64,000 bases of DNA, from the NCBI RefSeq assembly GCF_044324875.1, contig NZ_CP172185.1, one strand, 5' to 3'. Source of the stretch: Escherichia coli. Its GTDB lineage: Bacteria; Pseudomonadota; Gammaproteobacteria; Enterobacterales; Enterobacteriaceae. Numbering within the stretch: position 1 is the stretch's first letter; every line of letters begins with the position of its first letter. Below the pieces are notes generated by a model that was not told the DNA's origin, did no database searches, and worked only from the letters and a program-made list of their open reading frames with translations. Position numbers and translations under genes: made by a program. Positions 11,065 through 29,484 of this stretch are shown piece by piece.

Positions 11065-11378
11065 AACAGTCAATTGTCTCACTGGCGCAAGTCATTCGTT
11101 CGAAAAATGCCGGACCTTACGAACTGGTTTTAGATATTTTATTTAAAACCAAAGAAAACTATGAGCGAGTTAAATCATCAGGGCAATTAACCCCAGAACT
11201 GATTGCGCGCTTATATCATGTTGAACCTGACTTTATTCATCGTATTGTCTGGTTTGATCCTTCTAACGCAGTAAAAATCGTCATGCCACGAGATATTATC
11301 TCCGGGAATGTAGGTGACAATGATGTCTATGGTGCACAGCAACATGCACCTTTATTAAATATGAGTTTCGATTTGTAA
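11061..11378 (+). CDS. small conserved protein, 105 aa, probable partner of the AtuA-like protein (DUF4387-type by recollection)
   Basis: Start overlaps the stop of the preceding ORF (ATGA), indicating translational coupling. Confidence 0.45.
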   Translation: MKQSIVSLAQVIRSKNAGPYELVLDILFKTKENYERVKSSGQLTPELIARLYHVEPDFIHRIVWFDPSNAVKIVMPRDIISGNVGDNDVYGAQQHAPLLNMSFDL

Positions 11379-11461
11379 AAATCCGAATACTTTTAGCCAA
11401 CTGACATCCCGTCACTTATTGCAGTTCAACACTTCAGCTATTTGTAAGGTTGTAATAGCAG

Positions 11462-11512
11462 GTAGATGCCTGAATCTCTATTCAGACATCTACTTCTCCT
11501 GATTCTGATTTA
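11462..11512 (+). terminator. extended hairpin (14-bp stem, one mismatch) followed by a T-rich tract
   Basis: gtagatgcctgaat-ctct-attcagacatctac followed by ttctcctgattctgattt; sits between the small ORF and the symporter gene. Confidence 0.4.
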
Positions 11513-11538
11513 TCGCCGTGCACCTGATGGAGGAAAAA

Positions 11539-12819
11539 ATGAAGAAAATAAGTTTAACCACGATGATTCTTTTGGCACTGGTACTTGGAATGATTATCGG
11601 CGTAGTGCTCAATAACACTGCTTCACCGGAAACCGCAAAACTCTATGCGCAAGAAATATCGATATTCACGACGATTTTCTTACGACTGATAAAAATGATT
11701 ATCGCTCCGTTAGTGGTCTCTACCCTGGTGGTAGGTATAGCTAAAATGGGCGATGCCAAAGCCCTTGGTCGTATTTTTTCTAAAACACTCTTTTTATTTA
11801 TTTGCGCCTCATTGCTGTCAATTGCCTTAGGCTTGATAACAGTAAATTTCTTCATGCCAGGCACAGGAATTAATTTTGTTGCACACGGAGCCGAAACCAC
11901 CGGAGTGGTCGCGTCAGAACCCTTTACGCTAAAAGTATTTATTTCGCATGCTTTCCCCACCAGCATTGTCGATGCCATGGCGCACAATGAAATTTTGCAA
12001 ATCGTAGTGTTCTCAATTTTCCTCGGCTGTAGCCTGACGGCGATTGGCGAGAAAGGCAGCGCCATCGTTCACGCCTTAGATTCGCTGGCACATGCCATGT
12101 TAAAGCTCACTGGCTACGTCATGCTCTTCGCTCCCCTGACCGTATTCGCCGCTATTTCAGCATTGATTGCTGAACGAGGACTGGCAGTTATGGTGAGCGC
12201 CGGGATCTTTATGGGTGAATTTTATTTCACCATGTTGTTACTTTGGGTGCTGCTTATCGGTCTGGCCATCGTTTATGTCGGCCCCTGCATCAGACGCCTG
12301 ACCCGCGCCCTTTCGGAACCCGCTCTGCTGGCATTTACCACATCCAGTTCTGAAGCGGCTTTTCCGGGAACGCTTGAAAAACTGGAGCAATTTGGCGTTT
12401 CCCCCAAAATTGCCAGCTTTGTCTTACCCATTGGCTACTCATTTAATCTCGTTGGATCAATGGCCTACTGCTCCTTCGCCACAGTTTTCATCGCCCAGGC
12501 CTGCAATATCCATTTATCCATCGGTGAGCAAATCACCATGCTGTTGATCCTGATGTTGACCTCGAAAGGAATGGCTGGCGTACCACGCGCCTCAATGGTG
12601 GTTATCGCCGCCACGCTCAACCAGTTCAATATTCCGGAAGCGGGGCTGATCTTGCTGATGGGCGTTGATCCGTTCCTTGATATGGGGCGTTCCGCGACAA
12701 ACGTCATGAGCAACGCAATGGGCGCTGCGATGGTGAGTCGGTGGGAAGGCGAACATTTCGGCGAGGGTTGTCGGGGTAAAGCATTAAAACCCAATGAATC
12801 GAACGTTGCTCTGCCCTGA
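11539..12819 (+). CDS. dicarboxylate/amino acid:cation symporter (DAACS family, GltP-like); probable glutamate or C4/C5-dicarboxylate carrier
   Basis: Multi-pass hydrophobic protein with DAACS-like sequence; start chosen at the ATG 5 nt after a GGAGG (11529..11533). Confidence 0.75.
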   Translation: MKKISLTTMILLALVLGMIIGVVLNNTASPETAKLYAQEISIFTTIFLRLIKMIIAPLVVSTLVVGIAKMGDAKALGRIFSKTLFLFICASLLSIALGLITVNFFMPGTGINFVAHGAETTGVVASEPFTLKVFISHAFPTSIVDAMAHNEILQIVVFSIFLGCSLTAIGEKGSAIVHALDSLAHAMLKLTGYVMLFAPLTVFAAISALIAERGLAVMVSAGIFMGEFYFTMLLLWVLLIGLAIVYVGPCIRRLTRALSEPALLAFTTSSSEAAFPGTLEKLEQFGVSPKIASFVLPIGYSFNLVGSMAYCSFATVFIAQACNIHLSIGEQITMLLILMLTSKGMAGVPRASMVVIAATLNQFNIPEAGLILLMGVDPFLDMGRSATNVMSNAMGAAMVSRWEGEHFGEGCRGKALKPNESNVALP

Positions 12820-12926
12820 GGGGGATCTTAAGCAATCAGAAGCCAATGACTACGCATTTTTATAAGCCGGATCATGAAGTTAGACGGCAATTAAGTAACA
12901 CTAACGTTTAAGGTGAAAAGTGAAAT

Positions 12927-14579
12927 ATGTCCAAACCATTTATCTGGCAAGAACCGTTTCTACAAAATAAAGACGGTACAGAATATACATTAATTAGCGA
13001 TCAACATATTACAGTAACGGAATTAGACGGCGAAGAAGTGATAAAAATCGCTCCTGAAGCATTAACGCTGCTTGCCCGGCAGGCATTTTATGAAGCCTCT
13101 TTTTTCTTACGTTCCGCTCATTTGCAACAGGTCGCCAGCATTCTTAACGATCCGCAGGCCAGTAGTAATGATAAATACGTTGCGTTGCAGTTATTACGTA
13201 ATGCTGAAGTCTCAGCAAAAGGGGTATTACCCAACTGTCAGGATACCGGCACCGCAACTATTGTTGCCAGTAAAGGGCAACAGATATGGACGGGAGGTAA
13301 CGACGCTGAAGCCTTAAGCAAAGGCATTTACAGTACTTTCCAGGAAAATAATCTGCGCTTTTCACAAAATGCGCCGCTGGATATGTATACCGAAGTCAAT
13401 ACGCAAACCAATCTCCCGGCGCAGATTGATATCAGCGCTGTCGCTGGTAATGAGTACCATTTTCTCTGTGTTAATAAAGGGGGCGGCTCCGCCAATAAAG
13501 CCGCACTTTATCAGGAAACCAAATCCTTATTGCAACCAGAAAAACTGACCGCATTTTTAATCGAAAAAATGAAATCGCTGGGCACCGCTGCCTGCCCGCC
13601 TTACCACATCGCCTTTGTCGTCGGAGGGCTTTCAGCCGATCAAACCTTAAAAGTTGCCAAGCTGGCCTCTACGAAATATTACGACAATTTGCCCACCAGC
13701 GGAAACGAGCAGGGACAAGCATTCCGTGATATTGAGCTGGAAAAAGTGTTGCTCGAGGTCAGTCAGCAATTTGGTATTGGTGCGCAATTTGGGGGTAAAT
13801 ATTTCGCTCATGATATTCGCGTCATTCGTCTGCCGCGTCACGGTGGCTCTTGCCCGATAGCTATGACGCTCTCCTGTTCTGCCGATCGCAATATCAAAGC
13901 AAAAATTAACAAGCACGGTATCTGGCTGGAAAAACTCGAACACAATCCGGGGCAATATATTCCAGCCTCACTGCGGGAAGAAAATCACGCGCAACATGTA
14001 CAACTGGATCTAAACCGTCCGTTGCGTGACGTGATGCAGGATCTCGCCAGATTACCGGTAGGCACCCGCGTGTCGTTAAGTGGTCCCATCGTAGTGGCAC
14101 GCGATATCGCCCACGCCAAAATAAAAGCGCGGCTGGATAACGCCGAACCGATGCCGGATTACCTGAAGCATCATATTGTCTATTACGCTGGCCCGGCGAA
14201 AACACCGGAGAACATGGCCTGCGGTTCACTGGGTCCAACCACGGGCGGTCGAATGGACGGTTATGTCGATACCTTCCAGGCGGCTGGCGGCAGTCTGGTG
14301 ATGTTATCGAAAGGTAACCGCAGCCAGCAGGTCACCGATGCCTGTCACAAACATGGTGGCTTCAATCTGGGTAGTATTGGCGGTGCAGCTGCGTTACTGG
14401 CGCAAGAATATGTCAAAAGTCTGCGTTGCCTGGAATACCCGGAGCTGGGTATGGAAGCGGTGTGGATGATGGAAGTGGAAAATCTGCCCGCATTCATCCT
14501 GGTAGATGATAAAGGCAATAATTTCTTTAGTCAGTTTGAGCAGCAACACCGCTGCGCCAGTTGCCCTGCGGGACATTAA
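12927..14579 (+). CDS. fumD: class I fumarate hydratase family protein (FumA/FumB paralog); probable mesaconase (2-methylfumarate hydratase)
   Basis: 550 aa, collinear high similarity to E. coli FumA (...[11 protein letters not shown]..., ...[13 protein letters not shown]..., ...[13 protein letters not shown]...); location in a methylaspartate-pathway cluster; the fumD name is recalled from E. coli O157:H7 work. Confidence 0.8.
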
Positions 14580-14588
14580 GGAAAATGA

Positions 14589-15191
14589 ATGGAAGCGCGA
14601 ATTTCAACTGAACGGCATGTGCAGCGCCAGCAGAAATTGAAGGAACAGGTCGATACGCGCATCGCGGCGGCGATAGAGAAAAAAGGGATTTTGATTGTTT
14701 TCACCGGCAATGGCAAAGGGAAATCCACTGCCGCGTTTGGTACTGTGACGCGCGCGGTGGGTCATGGCAAAACGGTGGGGGTTGCGCAGTACATCAAGGG
14801 GCAATGGGACAACGGCGAATACAACCTTCTCCAGCCGCTGGGGGTTGAGTTTCATATTATGGGAACCGGTTTTACCTGGGAGACACAGAACCGGCAAGCG
14901 GATATCGACGCGGCGAAAGAGGTCTGGTCGGAAAGCAAACGGATGCTGGCTGACAAGCGTTACGACTTAGTGGTGCTTGATGAGCTGACCTATATGCTGG
15001 CTTACCATTATCTGGATACCGAAGAAGTGATCGCTTCTCTGCAAAACCGCCCGGCACAACAAAGTGTCATTGTCACCGGACGCGGTTGCCACAGTCAGAT
15101 ATTAAAAATGGCGGATACGGTCAGCGAAATCCGCCCCGTCAAACATGCTTTTGATAACGGCATTCAGGCCCAGCCGGGTATCGACTGGTAA
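14589..15191 (+). CDS. cob(I)yrinic acid a,c-diamide / cob(I)alamin adenosyltransferase (BtuR/CobA/CobO family)
   Basis: ...GILIVFTGNGKGKSTAAFG...GHGKTVGVAQYIKG...VVLDELTYM...VIVTGRGC...SEIRPVKHAF... is near-collinear with E. coli BtuR. Confidence 0.85.
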   Translation: MEARISTERHVQRQQKLKEQVDTRIAAAIEKKGILIVFTGNGKGKSTAAFGTVTRAVGHGKTVGVAQYIKGQWDNGEYNLLQPLGVEFHIMGTGFTWETQNRQADIDAAKEVWSESKRMLADKRYDLVVLDELTYMLAYHYLDTEEVIASLQNRPAQQSVIVTGRGCHSQILKMADTVSEIRPVKHAFDNGIQAQPGIDW

Positions 15192-15194
15192 TAA

Positions 15195-15226
15195 CTGCGC
15201 CTGGCATCCCGCCAGGCGCAGGTTTT
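15195..15226. terminator. convergent (bidirectional) intrinsic terminator between the adenosyltransferase gene and the LysR gene
   Basis: ctgcgcctggc-atccc-gccaggcgcag followed by gtttta on the + strand; both stop codons abut the hairpin. Confidence 0.6.
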
Positions 15227-16130
15227 ACATCTCCTGCGGTACAACCGATTTCGCCAGCAACCATTCACGAAATTGCTGCAAGTGCGGTGAGTCAGACTTC
15301 TCTTCCTGCCACGTCATAATAAAACGATTACCGGTACGAATAGGCACATCACAGGGGATCACCATATCGCCACTATCCAAATCATGTTGAATAGCGAAAC
15401 GTGGTAACAGCGCCACGCCGAGATTAGAGCGCACGGCGGCAATCAGCATTGAAAGCAAATCGAAACGTGGTCCGTTGTTGACCAGCGGACTGCTAACGCC
15501 AGATAAGGCAAACCACTCTTCCCAGCCAGTAATACGGGTACTTTGATGCAGAAGTGGTAACTCTGTAAGCAGTTCTGCCACTGACAGTTTTTGATCGGAC
15601 ATTGCAAGCAAACTGCCGCTGCATACCGGCAAAATCTCCTCATCAAAGAGATATTCTACTTCCGCCCAGGGCGCGCAAAAATTTTCGCGCATAATGACAG
15701 CATCGTACTCCCGATTAAGAAAATCGCCGTTATTAGCTAAAGAGTGAATATTAACAATAATATCGGGATGTAACTTTGTGAATTCATGTAAATTTGGGAT
15801 TAACCAGTGGGTACTAAACGTAGGATTCACGGCAAGTTCAATAACCTGAACCGTAGGCTGCCAGGTCATAATGGTATTGGTATCGCGTTCCAGCTTATTT
15901 AATGTTTCTTTTACTATCCCCAGGTAATACTTCCCTGCATCATTAAGAAAAATACGTTTTTTAGAGTGTGAAAATAACGGAGTATGTAAAAATTCCTCCA
16001 GCGCACTCACTTGTCTGAATACTGCACTTTGGGTCAACGCTAACTCCTCTGCCGCTTTGGTATAACTTTCATGACGTGCGACGACCTCAAAAGTCACCAG
16101 CAGCTCCGTTTTAGGTATTTTTCCTCGCAT
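15225..16130 (-). CDS. LysR-family transcriptional regulator
   Basis: N-terminal HTH (...FEVVARHESYTKAAEELALTQSAVFRQVSALEEFL...) and typical about 300-aa length. Confidence 0.85.
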   Translation of the reverse strand: MRGKIPKTELLVTFEVVARHESYTKAAEELALTQSAVFRQVSALEEFLHTPLFSHSKKRIFLNDAGKYYLGIVKETLNKLERDTNTIMTWQPTVQVIELAVNPTFSTHWLIPNLHEFTKLHPDIIVNIHSLANNGDFLNREYDAVIMRENFCAPWAEVEYLFDEEILPVCSGSLLAMSDQKLSVAELLTELPLLHQSTRITGWEEWFALSGVSSPLVNNGPRFDLLSMLIAAVRSNLGVALLPRFAIQHDLDSGDMVIPCDVPIRTGNRFIMTWQEEKSDSPHLQQFREWLLAKSVVPQEM

Positions 16131-16693
16131 AATGCCGTCCCTTAAAAATAGTTTAAACCATCAAAAATACATTACTTATTACGAAGTAATGGTAACCAAA
16201 GCAGCAATAAATAATTTATAAGAATCATGATTGACATTTATAACCCAGTAAGCCTGGCGTGACAAATATCTTAATCAGATAATAATAATCCGAAAAGCAC
16301 AGCGCCTTTCGAATTATCCGGAATCACATTAAGTGAAAATTATTAAATTGATATCATTTATCATATCTGTGGATATTATGATAAACAATCAACAAAGATT
16401 TTATTTTTGATTTATAGCATATCCCTCTAAGAATTTTTGCGATGCTGCAATATCCGGGGTAAAGACCCGATCCTGGCTGACAAATGGCACGACTTGACGA
16501 TAAGCGGTGAACATCGCTTTTGTTGATTTACTTAACGCTACGGTCAAACGCTGGGAAGCCAGTGCATCAGGTAACGATTCGAAATTCGCCGTCGTTCTTA
16601 TTCGTGGCTTGCGGTCGGTTGCGGCAATCCACAGTGGCTGTGGTCATGCAGTCAAGCCAGCGGTCAGATTTCGACCGTGGTTAACATTTAAGG

Positions 16694-16800
16694 CATAAAA
16701 AAGGCCATCATACGATGGCCAACCATGTCGAAACCGACAACCCTTCGCCATTCCTGTAGAGGGAAGCGGCGAGGGCTATTTCTTATTACAGATATTTATT
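16694..16800 (-). ncRNA. sdhX: SdhX (RybD) sRNA derived from the sucD 3' UTR, with its intrinsic terminator
   Basis: Hairpin ggccatcgtatgatggcc followed by a U-run on the minus strand about 75 nt after the sucD stop; SdhX is known to be processed from this 3' end. Exact 5' end not determinable here. Confidence 0.5.
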
Positions 16801-17665
16801 TCAGAACAGTTTTCAGTGCTTCACCGATATCCGCCAGGCTGCGAACGGTTTTCACGCCTGCGGCTTCCAGAGCAGCGAATTTCTCATCCGCAGTCCCTTT
16901 ACCACCGGCAATGATGGCACCCGCGTGGCCCATACGTTTGCCTTTCGGCGCAGTCACACCAGCGATGTAACCCACAACAGGCTTGGTAACGTGCTCTTTG
17001 ATGTACGCAGCCGCTTCTTCTTCAGCGCTACCGCCGATCTCACCGATCATCACGATCGCTTCGGTCTGCGGATCTTTTTCGAACATTTCGAGAATGTCGA
17101 TAAAGTTAGAGCCAGGGATCGGATCGCCGCCGATACCAACACAGGTCGACTGACCGAAACCGTAATCCGTGGTCTGTTTAACCGCTTCATAGGTCAGTGT
17201 ACCGGAACGGGAAACGATACCCACTTTACCCGGTTTGTGAATGTGACCCGGCTGGATACCGATTTTGCATTCACCCGGAGTGATAACGCCTGGGCAGTTC
17301 GGGCCGATCATACGAACGCCAGCTTCGTCCAGTTTCACTTTCACAGTCAGCATATCCAGCGTCGGGATGCCTTCAGTGATGGTGATAATCAGTTTGATGC
17401 CTGCATCGATGGCTTCCAGAATGGAGTCTTTGCAGAACGGTGCTGGTACGTAGATAACAGAAGCGGTAGCGCCAGTAGCAGCAACAGCTTCACGCACGGT
17501 GTTGAACACCGGCAGGCCGAGGTGGGTGGTGCCGCCTTTACCTGGGGTTACGCCGCCAACCATTTTAGTGCCGTATGCAATGGCCTGTTCTGAGTGGAAA
17601 GTCCCCTGGCTACCGGTAAAGCCCTGGCAGATAACCTTGGTGTTTTTATCAATTAAAATGGACAT
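16796..17665 (-). CDS. sucD: succinyl-CoA synthetase alpha subunit
   Basis: 289-aa [42 protein letters not shown]... Confidence 0.95.
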
Positions 17666-18831
17666 TATTTCCCCTCCACTGCGGCAACAACCTGCTGAGC
17701 TGCATCCGTCAGACCTTTTGCTGCAATAATATTCAGGCCGCTGTCAGCCAGTTTCTTCGCGCCGAGTTCGGCGTTGTTACCTTCCAGACGTACCACGACC
17801 GGTACGTTAACACCCACTTCCGCTACCGCGCCGATGATACCGTCAGCGATCAGGTCGCAACGAACGATACCGCCGAAGATGTTAACCAGAACGGCTTTCA
17901 CTTTGTCGTCAGAGAGGATGATTTTGAATGCTTCGGTTACACGTTCTTTGGTTGCGCCGCCGCCAACGTCCAGGAAGTTAGCCGGTTCGCCGCCGTGCAG
18001 TTTAACGATGTCCATCGTACCCATCGCCAGACCTGCGCCGTTAACCATACAACCGATGTTACCGTCCAGCGCAACGTAGTTCAGTTCCCACTGTGCAGCC
18101 TGTGCTTCACGCGGATCTTCCTGTGACTGGTCACGCATTTCGCGCAGATCAGGCTGGCGGAACAGTGCGTTGCCGTCAGCACCCAGTTTGCCGTCGAGGC
18201 AAATCAGATCGCCCTGTTTAGTGATGACCAGCGGGTTGATTTCGATCAGCGCCAGGTCGCGCTCCAGGAAAATGGTCGCCAGGCCCATGAAGATTTTGGT
18301 GAACTGCTGAACCAGTTTACCTTCCAGACCCAGTTTGAACGCCAGCTCGCGTCCCTGATACGGCATCGGGCCAGTCAGCGGATCAAGCGCAACTTTATGG
18401 ATCAGGTGCGGAGTTTCTTCCGCCACTTTTTCGATTTCCACGCCGCCTTCGGTGGAGGCCATAAAGACCACACGACGGGAACTACGGTCAACAACGGCAC
18501 CGAGATACAGCTCTTTAGCGATATCGGTCGCTGCTTCAACCAGAATCTGGTTAACCGGTTGGCCATTGGCATCTGTTTGATACGTTACCAGACGCTTGCC
18601 CAGCCAGTTTTCTGCAAAAGCACGGATGTCTTCTTTGCTGTTTACCACTTTCACACCGCCCGCTTTACCGCGGCCACCAGCGTGAACCTGACATTTCACT
18701 ACCCACGGACCGGCACCGATTTTTGAAGCGGCTTCTTCTGCTTCGCGCGGAGTAGTACAGGCATAACCCACCGGTGCTGGTAAGCCATAGCGGGCAAAAA
18801 GTTGTTTTGCCTGATATTCATGTAAGTTCAT
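17665..18831 (-). CDS. sucC: succinyl-CoA synthetase beta subunit
   Basis: 388-aa [23 protein letters not shown]...; start overlaps sucD. Confidence 0.95.
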
Positions 18832-18924
18832 GTGTTCTGTCCATCCTTCAGTAATCGTTATCTTTTAAACCGTAGACCGACACCCTATCCACGTCGGTCT
18901 ACAGTGCAGGTGAAGCTTAAACTA

Positions 18925-20142
18925 CTACACGTCCAGCAGCAGACGAGTCGGATCTTCCAGCAACTCTTTGATCGTTACCAGGAAGCCCACGGATTCGCGA
19001 CCATCGATCAGACGGTGATCGTAGGACAGCGCCAGGTACATCATCGGCAGGATCTCAACCTGACCATTCACCGCCATCGGACGATCTTTGATAGCGTGCA
19101 TACCCAGAATTGCGCTCTGCGGCGGGTTGATGATCGGCGTAGACATCAGGGAACCGAACACACCACCATTGGTGATGGTGAAGTTACCACCGGTCAGATC
19201 TTCAACCGTCAGCTTGCCGTCACGGCCTTTAACTGCCAGCTCTTTGATTTTCTTCTCGATGTCTGCCATGCCTAGGGTATCGACATCACGCAGTACCGGC
19301 GTCACCAGGCCGCGCGGCGTAGAAACCGCCATGCTGACGTCGAAATAGTTGTGGTAAACCACATCATCGCCGTCGATAGAAGCATTCACTTCCGGGTAAC
19401 GTTTCAGGGCTTCAACCACCGCTTTCACGTAGAAGGACATAAAGCCCAGACGGATGCCGTGGCGTTTTTCAAACGCTTCACCGTACTGCTTACGCAGATC
19501 CATAATCGGCTTCATATTGACTTCGTTGAACGTGGTCAGCATGGCGGTGGAGTTTTTCGCTTCCAGCAGACGCTCTGCCACACGCTTACGCAGGCGAGTC
19601 ATCGGCACACGTTTTTCGCTACGTGCAGCCAGAGCCGGTTGCGCCGCCGGAGCAGCCGCTGCCGGAGCAGACTCTTTCGCCGGGGCTTTCGCCAGATGTT
19701 TTTCCACATCTTCACGAGTCAGACGACCACCCACACCGGTGCCTTTAATGGCGCTGGCGTCGAGGTTGTGTTCAGCCAAGAGTCGGCGGATCGCCGGGCT
19801 TAACGCATCGTTGTTTTGCTCTTCCAGAGACGCCTGCTGGCGTTGCGCCGGAGTGGACGCTTTCTCTTCAGATTTGGCGCTGGTTTCTTTACCCGCGCTG
19901 TTGCCTTCACGCAGGCGACCAAGGATCTGACGAGACGTTACCGTTGTACCTTCATCTTCCAGAACCGCATCCAGAATGCCGTCTGCTGATGCCGGTACTT
20001 CCAGTACCACTTTGTCAGTTTCGATTTCTACCAGCACTTCATCACGTACGACTGCGTCGCCGGGTTTTTTATGCCAGGTTGCGACGGTGGCATCGGCTAC
20101 GGATTCAGGCAGGTCAGGGACCAGAATATCTACGCTACTCAT
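18925..20142 (-). CDS. sucB: 2-oxoglutarate dehydrogenase E2 (dihydrolipoyl transsuccinylase)
   Basis: 405-aa ORF with lipoyl domain ([26 protein letters not shown]...) and C-terminal acyltransferase region. Confidence 0.95.
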
Positions 20143-20156
20143 TGTGTATCCTTTAT

Positions 20157-22958
20157 TTATTCGACGTTCAGCGCGTCATTAACCAGATCTTGTTGCTGTT
20201 TCTGGTGAACGGACATATACCCTACCGCCGGAGAGGCGGAGGCCGGGCGGCCTGCATAACGCAGAGAAGCCCCAAACGGAATCACTTCACGGAAATGATG
20301 CTGGCTGCAGTACCATGCGCCCTGGTTGAGCGGCTCTTCCTGGCACCAGACAAAATCCTTGACGTGAGCAAACTGCTGCAACACTTCCTGCATCGCTTTA
20401 TGCGGGAACGGGTAGAGTTGCTCGATACGCACAATGGCGACATCGTGTTGATTGTTCTTACGACGTTGTTCCAGCAGGTCGTAATAAACCTTACCAGAAC
20501 ACATCACTACGCGCTTCACGCCCTTCGGATCAAGCTCGTCGATTTCACCGATGGCTGGCAGGAAGGTGCCGTTCGCCAGTTCTTCGAGGCTGGATACCGC
20601 CAGCGGATGACGCAGCAGGGATTTCGGCGACATCACGACCAGTGGACGACGCATCCCGCGCAACGCCTGACGACGCAGCATGTGGTAAACCTGTGCCGGG
20701 GTAGACGGTACGCACACCTGCATGTTTTGCTCAGCGCAAAGTTGCAGATAACGTTCCAGACGCGCGGAGGAGTGCTCCGGTCCCTGCCCTTCGTAACCGT
20801 GCGGCAGCAACATCACCAGGCCACACATCCGGCCCCATTTCTGCTCGCCAGAGGAGATGAACTGGTCGATAACCACCTGAGCACCGTTAGCGAAGTCACC
20901 GAACTGTGCTTCCCAGATAGTCAGAGTGCGTGGTTCTGCGGTGGCATAACCGTATTCAAACGCCAGCACTGCTTCTTCAGACAGTACAGAGTCCCAGACA
21001 CGGAACGCGCCCTGGCCGTTATGGATGTGTTGCAGCGGCGTGTAAGTGGAACCGTTAGACTGGTTGTGGATCACCGCGTGGCGGTGGAAGAAGGTACCGC
21101 GACCGGAGTCTTCACCCGACAGGCGAACCGGAATGCCTTCGTCAACCAGCGTGGCGTAAGCGAGGTTTTCCGCGCCGCCCCAGTCGAACAGTTTCTCACC
21201 GGCAGCCATCGCCTGGCGATCGCCATAAATCTTGGCAACGCGAGACTGCATTTCAACTGCTTCCGGCACCGTGCTGATGCGTTTAGCCAGTTCCTGCAGG
21301 CGCTTCATCTCAACTTTGTTCGGGTACTCTTCGTCCCATTCGTGGTTGAGGTACGGTGACCAGGTGAAAGAGTGCATGTTCATCGGACGCCACTCTGCTA
21401 CCACGCAATCGCCAGCATCCAGCGCATCGCGGTACAGGTTAACCATCTCGGTGGCATCTTCCAGCGTCGCGACTTTTTCTTGCTCCAGCTTGTCAGCGTA
21501 GATTTTGCGCGGCGTCGGATGTTTTTTGATTTTCTGATACATCAGCGGCTGGGTTGCGCTCGGCTCGTCGGCTTCGTTATGGCCATGACGGCGGTAGCAC
21601 ACCAGGTCGATGAAGACATCACGTTTAAAGGTGTTACGGAAATCGAGCGCCAGACGGGTCACAAAGGCAACGGCTTCCGGATCATCCGCGTTAACGTGGA
21701 AAATCGGTGCCTGAACCATCTTACCGATATCAGTACAGTACGGCGTCGAACGGGCATCCAGCGGGTTAGAGGTGGTGAAGCCAACCTGGTTGTTGATAAC
21801 GATACGTACCGTACCGCCAACTTCATAGCCACGCGCTTTCGACATGTTCAGGGTTTCCTGAACCACGCCCTGCCCGGTCACTGCGGCGTCACCGTGGATG
21901 GTAATTGGCAGCACTTTGTTGCTGCTCGGCTCATCAAGTCTGTCCAGACGGGCACGAACAGAACCGATAACTACCGGGCTTACAATCTCAAGGTGAGACG
22001 GGTTAAACGCCAGCGCCAGGTGCACCAGGCCGCCATCGGTCTGGAAGTCAGACGAGAAGCCCATGTGGTATTTCACGTCGCCTGTGCCAAGGTGTTCTTT
22101 ATGTTTACCGGCGAACTCGTCGAACAAGTCTTGCGGTTTTTTACCCAGCACGTTCACCAGCACGTTCAGACGACCACGGTGCGCCATCCCGAGAACCACT
22201 TCCCGGGTGCCGCTGTTGCCAGCGTGGCGGATCATCTCTTTAAGCATCGGGATTAACGCGTCACCGCCTTCCAGTGAGAAGCGTTTTGCGCCAGGGAATT
22301 TTGCGCCGAGGTAACGTTCAAGGCCTTCAGCGGCGGTCAGTTCGCTTAAGAAGCGTTTTTTCTCTTCGCTATTGAAAGTCGCGCGACCAGACTCGATACG
22401 CTGTTGGATCCAGCGTTTTTCTTCGGTGCTGGTAATGTGCATATACTCGGCACCAATCGGGCCGCAGTAGGTTTGCTTGAGGGCTTCCAGCAGCTCGCCG
22501 AGTTTCATGGTTTCTTTGCCGCTGGCAAATGAACCGACGTTGAAGGTCTCCTGGAAGTCTGCTTCGGTCAGATCGTGGAAAGACGGATCCAGATCGGCCA
22601 CTTTATCTTGCTGCCACAGTCCCAGCGGATCGAGATTCGCATGCTGGTGACCACGGAAGCGGTATGCGTTAATGAGCTGCAGGACTTTAACCTGCTTCAC
22701 ATTGGTGTCAGGGTCGGAGATCGTTGAAGAGTAACGTGAAGCGTCTTTCGCCAGGCGGCGGAAATATTCACGCGTTTGAGAGTGGAATTGATCCGGTTTG
22801 ACTCCCGTACCAGGTAACTGCTGGAACGTCGAACGCCAGTTAGCGTCAACCGAGTCAGGATCGGTTAAGAAGTCTTCATAGAGCTGTTCTATCCAGCTCT
22901 GGTTTGCGCCAGAGAGGTAAGAAGAGTCCAACCAGGCTTTCAAAGCGCTGTTCTGCAT
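20157..22958 (-). CDS. sucA: 2-oxoglutarate dehydrogenase E1 component
   Basis: 933-aa [34 protein letters not shown]... Confidence 0.95.
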
Positions 22959-23114
22959 CGTGATCCCTTAAGCATCTTTTTTATGCTTACTTCGCCGTGG
23001 ATACTACCACGCACAGTGATGTGCGTGCCGGGGTTCACTTGCGAGCTCTTGTCTACGTAGTGGCTCGCGAAGGAACCTTTAAAAACTGTCTTAGTGTCAG
23101 GGGCAGTTTTTAAA

Positions 23115-23305
23115 GATTTCCTGCATTTCTTTTGTAGGCCGGATAAGGCATTCACGCCACATCCGGCGCTGTTTGCCTGATGCGACGCTTGCGCGTCTTA
23201 TCAGGCCTACGATTTCTGCATTTCTTTTGTAGGCCGGATAAGGCGTTCACGCCGCATCCGGCACTGGTTGCCTGATGCGACGCTTGTGCGTCTTATCAGG
23301 CCTGG
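23115..23305. repeat. BIME (REP pair) unit tandemly duplicated, two copies of about 96 bp, in the sdhB-sucA intergenic region
   Basis: Unit gatttc(c)tgcatttcttttgtaggccggataaggc.ttcacgcc.catccggc...gcctgatgcgacgcttg.gcgtcttatcaggcct occurs twice head-to-tail (23115..23210 and 23211..23305) with a few substitutions. Confidence 0.8.
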
Positions 23306-23307
23306 GT

Positions 23308-24024
23308 TTACGCATTACGCTGCAACAACATCGACTTGATATGGCCGATGGCGCGCGTCGGGTTCAGCCCCTTCGGACATACACTGACGCAGTTCATGAT
23401 GCTGTGACAGCGGAATACACTGAATGCATCGCTCAAACCGTCGAGGCGGCTGTCAGTCTCGGTATCACGGCTATCGATCAGGAAACGATATGCCGCTAAC
23501 AAGCCTGCCGGGCCGATAAACTTATCGGGATTCCACCAGAAAGACGGACAAGAGGTTGAACAACATGCGCAGAGAATACATTCATACAGCCCGTCGAGTT
23601 TTTCGCGCTGCTCTGGCATCTGTAAATGCTCGCGAGCTGGCGGATTTTGTCCATTATTCAACAGGTAAGGCTTAATTTTCTCATATTGCGCATAGAATTG
23701 TCCCATGTCTACCACCAAATCGCGGATCACCGGTAAACCTGGCAGCGGGCGAATCACAATCTTCTTGCCCGGCTGGTTGAGTGCCGAAATCGGGGTAATA
23801 CAGGCCAGACCATTCTTGCCGTTCATGTTCAGACCGTCGGAACCGCACACACCTTCACGGCAGGAACGGCGGAACGACAGGCTGGGATCTTTCTCTTTCA
23901 GCTGGATAAGCGCATCCAGCAGCATCATGTCGCGACCTTCATCCGCTTCCAGGGTGTAATCCTGCATACGCGGAGCATCATCAACATCCGGGTTATAGCG
24001 ATAAATTGAAAACTCGAGTCTCAT
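23308..24024 (-). CDS. sdhB: succinate dehydrogenase iron-sulfur subunit
   Basis: 238-aa ORF MRLEFSIYRYNPDVDDAPRMQDYTLEADEGRDMMLLDALI... Confidence 0.95.
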   Translation of the reverse strand: MRLEFSIYRYNPDVDDAPRMQDYTLEADEGRDMMLLDALIQLKEKDPSLSFRRSCREGVCGSDGLNMNGKNGLACITPISALNQPGKKIVIRPLPGLPVIRDLVVDMGQFYAQYEKIKPYLLNNGQNPPAREHLQMPEQREKLDGLYECILCACCSTSCPSFWWNPDKFIGPAGLLAAYRFLIDSRDTETDSRLDGLSDAFSVFRCHSIMNCVSVCPKGLNPTRAIGHIKSMLLQRNA

Positions 24025-24039
24025 TTTCCTGTCTCCGCA

Positions 24040-25806
24040 TTAGTAAGTACGAATCTTCGGCGGGAATGCCGGGCGCAGTTTCGGTTCCATGTTGACGCTT
24101 CGGCGCGTCATGGATTCCGACTCTGGCAGATACAGGGAGTGGCACAGCCAGTTTTCATCATCACGATCCGGGAAGTCGAAGCGGCTATGCGCGCCACGGC
24201 TTTCGGTACGGAAGTTGGCAGAAACAGCCGTTGCATACGCCGTTTCCATCAGGTTATCCAGTTCCAGGCACTCAACGCGCTGGGTGTTGAACTCGCTGGA
24301 AGTATCATCCAGACGGGCATTTTTCAGACGCTCGCGGATAACTTTCAACTGCTCAAGCCCTTTCGCCATCGCATCACCTTCACGGAAGACCGAGAAGTTA
24401 TGCTGCATACATTCTTGCAGTGCTTTACGGATCGCCACCGGATCTTCACCGTTACGGTTGTTGTTCCAGCGGTTCAGACGATCCAGAGACGCTTCTACAT
24501 CAGACTCGCTGGCATCGCGCAGTGCGCCCTGCTCAGCAATAGACTCTTGCAGATGCAGACCTGCCGCACGACCAAATACTACCAGGTCCAGCAGCGAGTT
24601 GCCGCCCAGACGGTTAGCGCCATGTACCGATACACAAGCGATTTCACCAACGGCAAACAGCCCCGGAACAACCACATCTTCGCCTTTCTCATTCACCGTC
24701 AGCGCCTGACCGGTCACTTTGGTCGGAATACCGCCCATCATGTAGTGACAGGTTGGGATAACCGGAATCGGCTCTTTCACAGGATCAACGTGAGCGAAGG
24801 TACGGGAAAGCTCCAGGATACCCGGCAGACGGGATTCGAGAACTTCTTTACCCAGGTGATCGAGTTTCAGTTTCGCGTGTGGCCCCCACGGACCATCACA
24901 GCCGCGACCTTCACGGATTTCAATCATGATGGAACGCGCCACCACATCACGGCCCGCCAGGTCTTTGGCGTTCGGCGCATAACGCTCCATAAAGCGTTCG
25001 CCATGTTTGTTCAGCAGATAACCGCCTTCACCACGGCAACCTTCGGTGACCAGTACGCCCGCACCGGCAATGCCGGTCGGGTGGAATTGCCACATTTCCA
25101 TATCCTGCACCGGTACGCCTGCGCGGATAGCCATGCCGACGCCGTCGCCAGTGTTAATGTGGGCGTTGGTAGTGGACTGATAAATACGCCCTGCCCCGCC
25201 AGTCGCCAGCACGGTAGCGCGGGCTTTGAAATAAACCACTTCACCAGTTTCGATGCACAGTGCGGTACAACCGACCACCGCGCCATCCTGGTTTTTCACC
25301 AGATCCAGCGCATACCACTCGGAGAAAATGGTGGTGTGGTTTTTCAGGTTCTGCTGATAAAGGGTGTGCAACAGTGCGTGACCGGTACGGTCAGCTGCCG
25401 CCGCAGTACGTGCCGCCTGCTCGCCGCCGAAGTTTTTCGACTGACCGCCAAACGGACGTTGATAGATACGACCATCATCAAGACGCGAGAACGGCAGGCC
25501 CATATGTTCCAGTTCCAGAATCGCTTCCGGCCCGGTTTTACACATATATTCAATCGCGTCCTGGTCACCGATATAGTCCGAACCTTTTACGGTGTCGTAC
25601 ATATGCCATTCCCAGTTATCTTCATGGGTATTACCCAGCGCAACGGTAATGCCGCCTTGCGCAGAAACGGTATGGGAACGGGTCGGGAAGACTTTAGAGA
25701 GCAGCGCACAGGTCTGACCGCTCTGGGAAATTTGCAGCGCCGCGCGCATACCTGCGCCACCGGCACCAATCACAACTGCATCAAATTCTCTGACTGGCAA
25801 TTTCAT
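24040..25806 (-). CDS. sdhA: succinate dehydrogenase flavoprotein subunit
   Basis: ORF with [24 protein letters not shown]...; start placed at MKLPV, overlapping the sdhD stop by 1 nt (TGATG). Confidence 0.95.
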
Positions 25807-26153
25807 CACACACCCCACACCACAACGAATCCATAAATCACGTAAACCACCAGTGCAACGACAATCACCAGTTGCAGCATCAGGCGCAAGGCCAGCGGTT
25901 TAACGTAGTCGGTCAACACCTGCCACATGCCGATCCAGGCATGAATCAAGATAGAAAACAGCGCCAGCAGGGTGAACACTTTGGTGAACGCAGAGGCGAA
26001 GAAACCGATCCAGACTTCATATGTCAGCTCGCCACTGGTAGCGAAAAAACCGACCATATAAATGATGTAGAGCGTCAGGACGATAGCGGTAGCGCGAACG
26101 AGGATGAAATCATGTACGCCATTGCGTCCTAATGCGGAGGCGTTGCTTACCAT
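25806..26153 (-). CDS. sdhD: succinate dehydrogenase membrane anchor subunit
   Basis: 115-aa hydrophobic ORF in the sdhC-D-A-B order. Confidence 0.9.
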
Positions 26154-26536
26154 ACGAGGACTCCTGCGAGAAGTGAAAGCACGACAGTAATAACAAAGGA
26201 GATTTTGGCGGAGCGTTTACCCGCTTCGAATGTTTCTTCCAGATAGCCAAAATCCATCATCATGTGGCGAATACCTACGACGACGTGATACGCCAGAGCG
26301 GTAAGGATGCCCCACATGATAAATTTGACGAAGAAGCTGCCCATGATCGCGGAAGCTTGCTCGAAACCTTCAGGGGAAGAGAGGCTGGTACCCAGAAGCC
26401 ACAGCAGGATGCCCACTGCAACAAAGGTGATCACACCGGAAACGCGATGGAGAATGGACGCTATCGCCGTGACGGGGAACCGGATGGTCTGTAGGTCCAG
26501 ATTAACAGGTCTTTGTTTTTTCACATTTCTTATCAT
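26147..26536 (-). CDS. sdhC: succinate dehydrogenase cytochrome b556 subunit
   Basis: ORF containing [21 protein letters not shown]...; start set at MIRNV (129 aa). Confidence 0.9.
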
Positions 26537-27244
26537 GAATAACGCCCACATGCTGTTCTTATTATTCCCTGGGGACTACGGGCACAGAGGTTAACTTTCT
26601 GTTACCTGGAGACGTCGGGATTTCCTTCCTCCGGTCTGCTTGCGGGTCAGACAGCGTCCTTTCTATAACTGCGCGTCATGCAAAACACTGCTTCCAGATG
26701 CGAAAACGACACGTTACAACGCTGGGTGGCTCGGGATTGCAGGGTGTTCCGGAGACCTGGCGGCAGTATAGGCCGTTCACAAAATCATTACAATTAACCT
26801 ACATATAGTTTGTCGGGTTTTATCCTGAACAGTGATCCAGGTCACGATAACAACATTTATTTAATTTTTAATCATCTAATTTGACAATCATTCAACAAAG
26901 TTGTTACAAACATTACCAGGAAAAGCATATAATGCGTAAAAGTTATGAAGTCGGTATTTCACCTAAGATTAACTTATGTAACAGTGTGGAAGTATTGACC
27001 AATTCATTCGGGACAGTTATTAGTGGTAGACAAGTTTAATAATTCGGATTGCTAAGTACTTGATTCGCCATTTATTCGTCATCAATGGATCCTTTACCTG
27101 CAAGCGCCCAGAGCTCTGTACCCAGGTTTTCCCCTCTTTCACAGAGCGGCGAGCCAAATAACAAACGGGTAAAGCCAGGTTGATGTGCGAAGGCAAATTT
27201 AAGTTCCGGCAGTCTTACGCAATAAGGCGCTAAGGAGACCTTAA

Positions 27245-28528
27245 ATGGCTGATACAAAAGCAAAACTCACCCTCAACGGGGACACAGCTGTTGAACTGGA
27301 TGTGCTGAAAGGCACGCTGGGTCAAGATGTTATTGATATCCGTACTCTCGGTTCAAAAGGTGTGTTCACCTTTGACCCTGGCTTCACTTCAACCGCATCC
27401 TGCGAATCTAAAATTACTTTTATTGATGGTGATGAAGGTATTTTGCTGCACCGCGGTTTCCCGATCGATCAGCTGGCGACCGATTCTAACTACCTGGAAG
27501 TTTGTTACATCCTGCTGAATGGTGAAAAACCGACTCAGGAACAGTATGACGAATTTAAAACTACGGTGACCCGTCATACCATGATCCACGAACAGATTAC
27601 CCGTCTGTTCCATGCTTTCCGTCGCGACTCGCATCCAATGGCAGTCATGTGTGGTATTACCGGCGCGCTGGCGGCGTTCTATCACGACTCGCTGGATGTT
27701 AACAATCCTCGTCATCGTGAAATTGCCGCGTTCCGCCTGCTGTCGAAAATGCCGACCATGGCCGCGATGTGTTACAAGTATTCCATTGGTCAGCCATTTG
27801 TTTACCCGCGCAACGATCTCTCCTATGCCGGTAACTTCCTGAATATGATGTTCTCCACGCCGTGCGAACCGTATGAAGTTAATCCGATTCTGGAACGTGC
27901 TATGGACCGTATTTTGATCCTGCACGCTGACCATGAACAGAACGCCTCCACCTCCACCGTGCGTACCGCTGGCTCTTCGGGGGCGAACCCGTTTGCCTGT
28001 ATCGCAGCAGGTATTGCTTCACTGTGGGGACCTGCGCACGGTGGTGCTAACGAAGCGGCGCTGAAAATGCTGGAAGAAATCAGCTCCGTTAAACACATTC
28101 CGGAATTTGTTCGTCGTGCGAAAGACAAAAATGACTCTTTCCGCCTGATGGGCTTCGGGCACCGCGTGTACAAAAATTACGACCCGCGCGCCACCGTAAT
28201 GCGTGAAACCTGCCATGAAGTGCTGAAAGAGCTGGGTACCAAAGATGACCTGCTGGAAGTGGCTATGGAGCTGGAAAACATCGCGCTGAACGACCCGTAC
28301 TTTATCGAGAAGAAACTCTACCCGAACGTCGATTTCTACTCTGGTATCATCCTGAAAGCGATGGGTATTCCGTCTTCCATGTTCACCGTCATTTTCGCAA
28401 TGGCACGTACCGTTGGCTGGATCGCCCACTGGAGCGAAATGCACAGTGACGGTATGAAGATTGCCCGTCCGCGTCAACTGTATACAGGATATGAAAAACG
28501 CGACTTTAAAAGCGACATTAAGCGTTAA
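27245..28528 (+). CDS. gltA: citrate synthase
   Basis: 427-aa [43 protein letters not shown]...; divergent from sdhC across a long regulatory region. Confidence 0.95.
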
Positions 28529-28554
28529 TGGTTGATTGCTAAGCCGTTTACTTT

Positions 28555-28590
28555 CCGGACCCGCCTTTAATAGAGCGGGTTCTTTTTTAT
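28555..28590 (+). terminator. intrinsic terminator downstream of gltA
   Basis: ggacccgc...gcgggttc hairpin followed by TTTTTT. Confidence 0.55.
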
Positions 28591-28917
28591 ATGGCTGAAC
28601 ATAATAAATTGTAAAAATTAAACCAGATGCAAATACCCATTAATAAGGTGAAAAAATGTGACAAGTCACATACTGAGCAGAATGATAAGTTTATTTTTAT
28701 ACTTTCCTGCCGGTAGCATTTTTAACCCAATGAAAATTATGCATATCCATCCCACCCCATCTTTCATCTCATTAAACAATAAATTTATGCACTCAATTAT
28801 TCCATTCTTTATATAACAAGCTTTTTAATATTGTTAAATAAAACCAAATACATTCAACTGTCAGTTAATATATTCTTGCCTCGCAACACTCTATCTCATT
28901 ATTTAAAGGACTCAGCT

Positions 28918-29484
28918 ATGTTTAAAGGACAAAAAACATTGGCCGCACTGGCCGTATCTCTGCTGTTCACTGCACCTGTTTATGCGGCTGATGAAGGATC
29001 CGGTGAAATTCACTTTAAAGGTGAAGTTATTGAAGCACCGTGTGAAATACATCAGGATGATATTGATAAAGAGGTTGAACTCGGTCAGGTGACCACCAGC
29101 CACATTAATCAGTCGCATCACAGCGATGCCGTTGCTGTCGACCTGCGCTTAGTCAACTGCGATCTGGAAAACTCCAACAACGGTTCCGGCGGCAAGATTT
29201 CTAAAGTTGCAGTCACCTTTGACAGCTCAGCGAAAACCACCGGCGCAGATCCGATTCTCAACAACACCAGCACGGGTGAAGCGACCGGTGTCGGCGTGCG
29301 TTTAATGAATAAAGATCAAAGCAATATCGTTTTAGGCACCGCTACTCCAGATATCGACCTGGCACCAACCTCCAGCGAACAAACGTTAAATTTCTTTGCG
29401 TGGATGGAACAAATTGATCAGGCTACGCCCGTAACACCAGGCGCAGTTACGGCGAATGCAACCTACGTGCTGGATTATAAATAA
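28918..29484 (+). CDS. ybgD: fimbrial major subunit (chaperone-usher fimbriae)
   Basis: MFKGQKTLAALAVSLLFTAPVYA signal peptide; about 188 aa; RBS AAGGA upstream of the chosen ATG; first gene of the subunit-usher-chaperone-adhesin set. Confidence 0.85.
   Translation: MFKGQKTLAALAVSLLFTAPVYAADEGSGEIHFKGEVIEAPCEIHQDDIDKEVELGQVTTSHINQSHHSDAVAVDLRLVNCDLENSNNGSGGKISKVAVTFDSSAKTTGADPILNNTSTGEATGVGVRLMNKDQSNIVLGTATPDIDLAPTSSEQTLNFFAWMEQIDQATPVTPGAVTANATYVLDYK

Follow-up and report, generated by a model that had tools for sequence, protein, structure and literature searches.

Flavodoxin is the reductant for Salmonella CobA, the ATP:co(I)rrinoid adenosyltransferase that corresponds to BtuR of Escherichia coli. 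Other adenosyltransferases are encoded together with the enzymes that use their product. PduO in the pdu system and EutT in the eut system are each encoded with an adenosylcobalamin-dependent enzyme and a reactivation factor, and act beside CobA (PMC7242693). The cobA gene considered here is likewise operon-encoded with a B12 enzyme, in addition to a housekeeping copy. It differs in that the PduO and EutT protein families are unrelated to its product, and in that the surrounding glm cluster is without microcompartment genes.

The gene cluster itself has been described. Kronen & Berg (2015, PLoS One, PMC4682846) characterized its FumD enzyme and put the frequency of the cluster at 26.5% in E. 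coli and at 90.6% in O157:H7 strains. Figure 5 of that paper carries the labels 'CobA, cob(I)alamin adenosyltransferase' and 'LTTR', and the legend lists GltP, FumD, CobA and LTTR. In O157:H7 strain ATCC 700728, methylaspartase activity was undetected and there was no glutamate-dependent anaerobic growth, with or without cobalamins (PMC4682846), so that the cluster may be silent under laboratory conditions. Clostridial operons of the type mutS/glmS-mutL/glmL-mutE/glmE-mal share with it the core order glmS-glmL-glmE-mal (PMC4682846). According to the same authors, genes for citramalate lyase and a split mesaconase belong to the clostridial clusters, for which an adenosyltransferase is not listed. 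The enterobacterial cluster, in contrast, adds atuA-DUF4387, a transporter, a single-chain FumD, CobA and a LysR regulator.

The CobA drawn in the O157:H7 cluster (PMC4682846) is the same gene as the one analysed here. Full-text searches pairing 'adenosyltransferase' with the cluster returned only Kronen & Berg 2015, once, in a figure legend, and the searchable literature yielded no biochemical or genetic test of this CobA. As the gene is annotated in RefSeq (as cobO) and the cluster was drawn in 2015, gene and cluster are already on record and novelty is low. What is added here is a count of the paralogue in E. coli, its deep and separate clade, its strict linkage to the cluster and an analysis of selection. 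The gene very probably encodes a functional, pathway-dedicated adenosyltransferase, predicted to be co-transcribed as the last gene of a glutamate mutase/methylaspartase/mesaconase operon.

The adenosyltransferase gene and its operon

The DNA analysed (the window) is a 64-kb stretch of E. coli chromosome, the part of interest lying between cydAB and sucABCD. The cobA gene occupies positions 14589..15191 on the + strand. Its ORF has an ATG start, 200 codons and an intact reading frame. The start lies 9 bp past the fumD stop, and a Shine-Dalgarno sequence, AAGGA, is placed 6 nt 5′ of it, overlapping the fumD stop codon. In E. coli strain 7/2 the DNA is 100% identical, and the RefSeq annotation there gives a cobO gene with these same boundaries. 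The order fumD-cobO-LysR-sucD recurs in O157:H7 strain SS52, whose cobO shows 99.2% DNA identity to the window.

Family assignment was made from curated profiles and an alignment to a known structure. The protein scores 296 bits against NCBIfam PRK05986 (cut-off 185) and 246.6 bits against TIGR00708 cobA (cut-off 167.75). It matches Pfam PF02572 at 6e-64 over model positions 1–172 of 172, and its Pfam matches are PF02572 and PF12557 only. Both NCBIfam values are whole-protein scores above the curated cut-offs of the CobA/CobO/BtuR family. Residues 6–200 align without gaps to residues 2–196 of Salmonella CobA (PDB 1g5r; 3.4e-88). The initial annotation had called the product a BtuR/CobA-type adenosyltransferase, and the NCBIfam, Pfam and 1g5r alignments bear this out: the ORF is clearly assignable, by sequence, to the CobA/BtuR/CobO-type ATP:co(I)rrinoid adenosyltransferases.

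The expected active-site features are in place. The ATP-binding P-loop, for which the family pattern is GNGKGK[TS]T, reads G40-N-G-K-G-K-S-T47. All 49 aligned sequences agree at G40-N-G-K-G-K45 and at T47; position 46 is Ser in the cluster-linked clade and Thr or Ser in the housekeeping clade. Phe91 and Trp93 of Salmonella CobA, counted here among the catalytic hallmarks, are treated in 2012 work as cited in PMC5282855. Their equivalents, F95 and W97, are kept in 134 of 134 sequences of the cluster-linked type and in 67 of 67 of the housekeeping type. The 49-sequence alignment, taken over both paralogue clades, has 79 fully conserved positions, among them the P-loop, F95/W97, D131-E132 and R165 in window numbering. 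The equivalent of Salmonella R9, R13 in the window, is conserved as well.

Upstream genes are arranged in the order glmS-glmL-glmE-mal-atuA-DUF4387-transporter-fumD-cobA, all on the + strand. Curated profiles identify glmS (5148–5597) as the B12-binding subunit of glutamate (methylaspartate) mutase, glmL (5597–6985) as its accessory, reactivase-like protein and glmE (7004–8449) as its catalytic subunit. The DxHxxG motif of GlmS is present as GADCHAVG. These are followed by methylaspartate ammonia-lyase (mal, 8449–9690; TIGR01502, 543.9 bits against a cut-off of 286), by genes for an AtuA-family protein of 456 aa (9694–11064) and a DUF4387 protein of 105 aa (11061–11378), both conserved in the cluster, and by a dicarboxylate/amino acid:cation symporter of GltP/DctA-like type (11539..12819), whose profile matches lie below equivalog cut-offs. 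The gene preceding cobA is fumD (12927..14579), encoding a class I fumarate hydratase/mesaconase of 550 aa recognized by profile and by comparison with PMC4682846. GlmS, GlmL, GlmE, methylaspartate ammonia-lyase and the FumD-type fumarase each score above their curated NCBIfam cut-offs, so that the earlier report of a B12-dependent mutase alongside cobA holds. Beyond cobA, the convergent gene (15225..16130, − strand) encodes a LysR-family regulator of 301 aa, with a sub-threshold best match to the GcvA subfamily. This convergent gene adjoins cobA in all clusters examined.

The AtuA-family and DUF4387 ORFs overlap by 4 bp and are 84–91% identical in all enterobacterial glm clusters examined. 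The AtuA-family gene of the cluster is often mis-annotated as methylaspartate ammonia-lyase (Kronen & Berg, PMC4682846). An Rfam scan of the whole 64-kb window gave no cobalamin riboswitch. Its sole matches were a tandem pair of naRNA4 elements (RF02564; 23137–23207 and 23232–23302, at 77.6 and 86.8 bits against a gathering score of 59.5), immediately beyond the point where sucA begins (its 5′ end).

The hairpin between cobA and the LysR gene

A perfect, G+C-rich hairpin of 11 bp (15195..15221) occupies the 33 bp that separate the convergent stops of cobA and the LysR gene; it was examined on both strands by pairing, folding and a terminator scan. Its sequence, CTGCGCCTGGC-ATCCC-GCCAGGCGCAG, forms 11 perfect pairs, nine of them G-C, around a 5-nt loop, and is unique within the window. 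The cobA TAA (15189–15191) is backed by another TAA in frame. The hairpin begins 4 nt past the first of these and finishes 4 nt short of the LysR stop codon (15225–15227). Folding energies are −28.3 kcal/mol (z −4.5) on the + strand and −27.4 kcal/mol (z −3.7) on the − strand. In a scan of positions 4000–17000 the hairpin was the top-ranked terminator-like site.

The two directions are unequal. On the + strand the hairpin is followed by GTTTTAC (RNA GUUUUAC) and is called by the terminator scanner; its function as a terminator for cobA is well supported. On the − strand the tail is only TTATTACC (RNA UUAUUACC) and the scanner makes no call, so that termination of the LysR gene by the same element is plausible but weaker. 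The initial annotation had the cobA stop abutting a hairpin that also terminates the convergent gene: the first part stands, with a spacing of 4 nt, while the second is reduced to plausibility by the poor U-tract. In other genera the hairpin sequence is not conserved, and the gap there has its own hairpins or REP-like repeats. The hairpin is thus a local solution and not a conserved element.

The variable segment

In comparison with K-12, the cluster is part of a variable segment (2724..16688) that replaces mngR-mngA-mngB and extends from the region upstream of cydA to sdhX/sucD. The term 'island', used for it in the initial annotation and kept below as a convenient label, applies loosely. The segment is variable in E. 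coli, where cobA is present in 1121 of 5426 complete genomes. Mobility signatures were looked for as tRNA genes, phage-like genes and composition, and did not appear: positions 1–20000 contain no tRNA genes, the two ORFs at the edge have no PHROG or NCBIfam match, and the GC content of the operon, 0.46–0.56, is like that of its flanks, with only the edges (about 2000–5000 and 15500–16500) AT-rich. The glm cluster also adjoins sucD in Citrobacter, Salmonella and K. michiganensis.

The edge ORFs (3153–4097, 314 aa; 4178–4600, 140 aa) lie at the left edge, have a GC content of 0.34–0.39 and are hypothetical in RefSeq. At the right boundary, a match to the K-12 small RNA sdhX (16689–16795), directly downstream of sucD, is retained, the block of K-12 homology being 98.8% identical. 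At least three architectures of the sucD-cydA interval occur in E. coli. K-12 has mngR-mngA-mngB only. Strain 7/2 has the glm cluster together with rtcB-mngB-mngA-mngR between the LysR gene and sucD. In the window and in O157:H7 the glm cluster stands alone, and 666 bp separate its LysR gene from sucD. The intervals compared include 21561–29130 and 2656–8586 of the extracted loci L001 and L008, besides 2724–16688 of the window. Strain 7/2 matches the window only as far as 16148, 18 bp upstream of the LysR start codon, so that the two architectures with a cluster differ in the region of the LysR promoter.

A second adenosyltransferase gene in addition to btuR

Island CobA and the housekeeping BtuR are collinear but well separated in sequence. 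Against BtuR of E. coli BL21, 131 of 196 residues are identical (67%) with no gaps; against BtuR of strain 7/2 the count is 130 of 196 (66%). The island protein has four additional N-terminal residues. The initial annotation had described the ORF as near-collinear with BtuR, which is accurate, the identity of 66–67% running gap-free over 196 residues, and had proposed a comparison with the chromosomal btuR of the same genome; in strain 7/2 that identity is 66%.

Copy number was assessed across 5426 complete E. coli genomes. By megablast, island cobA is found in 1121 of them, about a fifth. A sensitive blastn search for btuR-like genes finds at least one in 5422 genomes, with 6546 places in 5425 records. 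This amounts to one additional btuR-like place for essentially each of the 1121 island carriers, and the carriers listed show two places. Strain 7/2 has both genes annotated, island cobA at 797833–798435 and yciK-btuR at 1445218–1445808. Both paralogues also occur together in nine other species in a scan of one genome per species. Four of the 5426 genomes are without a btuR-like sequence, and one plasmid record bears island cobA and glmE at megablast level.

Location and sequence grouping separate the two genes. The housekeeping gene forms yciK-btuR near rluB and sohB; island cobA lies between fumD and the LysR gene near sucD. Island CobA is 66–68% identical to housekeeping copies and falls in a separate clade, while E. 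coli BtuR is 85–90% identical to the copies of Salmonella, Citrobacter, Enterobacter and Klebsiella and 80% identical to that of Yersinia. The initial annotation had reasoned that a sole btuR copy would indicate a relocated housekeeping gene; carriers have a second place, and strain 7/2 annotates both genes. Island cobA is a true paralogue, not a moved housekeeping gene. This statement rests on close relatives, namely strain 7/2 and the collection count, the genome of the window itself lying outside the collection (best match 99.2% over 25 kb).

A cluster-linked lineage across genera

The nearest proteins in a collection of 5.8 billion are 200 aa long, 82–87% identical, and come from Citrobacter, Enterobacter, Salmonella and relatives. 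The cobA genes of C. koseri, S. enterica and E. cloacae stand directly 3′ of the cluster's fumarase gene and are followed by the convergent LysR gene. The one-genome-per-species scan gave 80 loci, 13 with 80–85% identity and 67 with 65–71%. Adding the three loci just named to the 13 yields 16 other-species loci with an at least 80% identical copy, from Citrobacter spp., Salmonella, Enterobacter, Lelliottia, Buttiauxella, K. michiganensis and a Raoultella MAG. The full cluster, glmL-glmE-mal-atuA-DUF4387-SDF-fumD-cobA with convergent LysR, is present in all 16. Copies linked to the cluster are 80–87% identical and hold the same position in Citrobacter, Salmonella, Enterobacter, Klebsiella, Lelliottia and Buttiauxella, which with Escherichia makes seven genera. 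Where the copy is only 65–71% identical, in 67 loci, the flanks fetched contain no glm or mal genes.

The clusters vary in their accessory genes. A glutaminase gene lies between the transporter gene and fumD in the Salmonella (positions 7244–8245 of locus L006) and Enterobacter (7255–8256 of L007) clusters and is absent from those of E. coli and C. koseri. In Salmonella, the stretch from the LysR gene to sucD additionally holds a TP_methylase gene and one for a PocR-type regulator. One of the 67 less similar loci, that of Morganella morganii (NZ_CP066129.1; 6573–12515 of locus L066), has the partial arrangement SDF transporter-fumD-cobA with LysR. An extra ORF separates cobA from LysR there, and glm or mal genes were not found within 10 kb upstream. 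The Morganella CobA, 196 aa and 68% identical, branches deeply and belongs to neither the island clade nor the main housekeeping clade.

Identity to island CobA is bimodal, with 134 sequences at 80–100%, 67 at 60–71.4% and a gap between. Neighbour-joining recovers the island type as a single clade (bootstrap 100/100), which branches outside the whole housekeeping range, running from Escherichia to Yersinia, Pectobacterium and Hafnia. Between E. coli and Salmonella the housekeeping protein shows 89% identity and the island protein 84%. The deep, separate clade and these orthologue identities place the duplication, or acquisition from outside, before these genera diverged. A recent origin by duplication of E. 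coli btuR was considered and rejected, given the 66% identity, a pN of 0.23 and the position of the island clade outside all Enterobacterales housekeeping sequences. Comparing dS of the cluster genes with that of sucCD was uninformative on vertical versus horizontal history, cluster dS being saturated and sucCD codon-biased.

Island cobA is under strong purifying selection. Its pN is 0.094–0.121 and its pS 0.72–0.74, for a dN/dS of about 0.03–0.04, similar to glmE and mal. Within E. coli, glmE is found in 1121 genomes and island cobA in 1121 (at least 80% coverage each). The link of island cobA to glutamate mutase is strong but circumstantial.

Residues specific to the cluster-linked lineage

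Against the background of conserved catalytic features, the island lineage has its own substitutions. Its likeness to Salmonella CobA and E. coli BtuR (PDB 1g5r and 4hut) is that of members of one Pfam and NCBIfam family, aligned gap-free over 195–196 residues at 66–68% identity, with the P-loop and the equivalents of F91/W93 and R9 conserved. It departs from them in its place at the end of a glm-mal-fumD operon and not in yciK-btuR, in forming a distinct clade, in the four-residue N-terminal extension, in the change of P-loop T42 to Ser, and in four to six fixed or near-fixed substitutions. In the 49-sequence set, the island clade is fixed for D74, Y78, G92, E115, L137 and H140, none of which occurs in a housekeeping-type sequence. 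In the 201-sequence set only D74 and Y78 are strictly fixed, the other four being near-fixed.

The clearest single difference concerns the site of Salmonella R165, which is Ser169 in the window protein. It is Arg in 67 of 67 housekeeping-type sequences and never Arg in 134 of 134 island-type sequences, where it is mostly Ser, Ala or Thr. The neighbouring residue changes from Asp/Glu in the housekeeping type to Gln/Leu in the island type. The absence of this Arg in the island lineage is a small new point.

R9 and R165 of Salmonella CobA are reportedly the residues at which flavodoxin docks. On that basis, cluster-linked CobA could be a diverged, specialized adenosyltransferase that has given up one flavodoxin-docking Arg for an altered partner, either a reductant other than flavodoxin or a direct hand-off of the product to GlmS/GlmL. 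Direct delivery has a parallel in the human adenosyltransferase, which hands adenosylcobalamin directly to methylmalonyl-CoA mutase. The uniform loss of Arg, the changed neighbour and the four to six further positions are consistent with such specialization. The conserved equivalent of R9 (R13) speaks against it. A change of partner is put forward as a tentative and rather unlikely extension.

Proposed role in cofactor supply

Island cobA combines the features of a dedicated adenosyltransferase gene: it stands in the operon of an adenosylcobalamin-dependent enzyme, and the same genomes hold a housekeeping copy. From these we infer catalytic activity, co-transcription and glutamate mutase as the client. 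In the proposed sequence of events, (i) cobalamin imported by E. coli would be reduced to cob(I)alamin. (ii) Island CobA would then move the 5′-deoxyadenosyl group of ATP onto the cobalt, giving adenosylcobalamin. (iii) This cofactor would load GlmS, the B12-binding subunit of glutamate mutase. (iv) After inactivation of the mutase, island CobA and the accessory protein GlmL may together re-adenosylate the cofactor that is released.

The housekeeping BtuR of the same genomes could in principle supply adenosylcobalamin. Island CobA might accordingly be an active but redundant passenger that hitch-hikes in the cluster while BtuR does the real work, as the presence of BtuR in all carriers and the undetected expression of the cluster in O157:H7 would allow. 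Such redundancy is improbable. The position directly after fumD is invariant in the 16 other-species loci and in 1121 E. coli genomes, the low dN/dS matches that of glmE and mal, and the clade is monophyletic and deep-branching; this combination points to long-term selection on the linked cobA itself. That the gene is merely the single housekeeping btuR in a new place, as collinearity and common family membership might suggest, is almost certainly wrong in view of the two places in each carrier, the two genes annotated in strain 7/2, and an identity of 66–67% to E. coli BtuR against 80–87% to cluster-linked copies of other genera.

With island CobA as a dedicated enzyme, the enterobacterial methylaspartate-pathway cluster would be self-contained for cofactor activation, encoding the mutase, the accessory protein GlmL and an adenosyltransferase. 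The relevance of this is modest. It would bear on the heterologous expression of glutamate mutase, and on why O157:H7 and gut Enterobacteriaceae keep the cluster.
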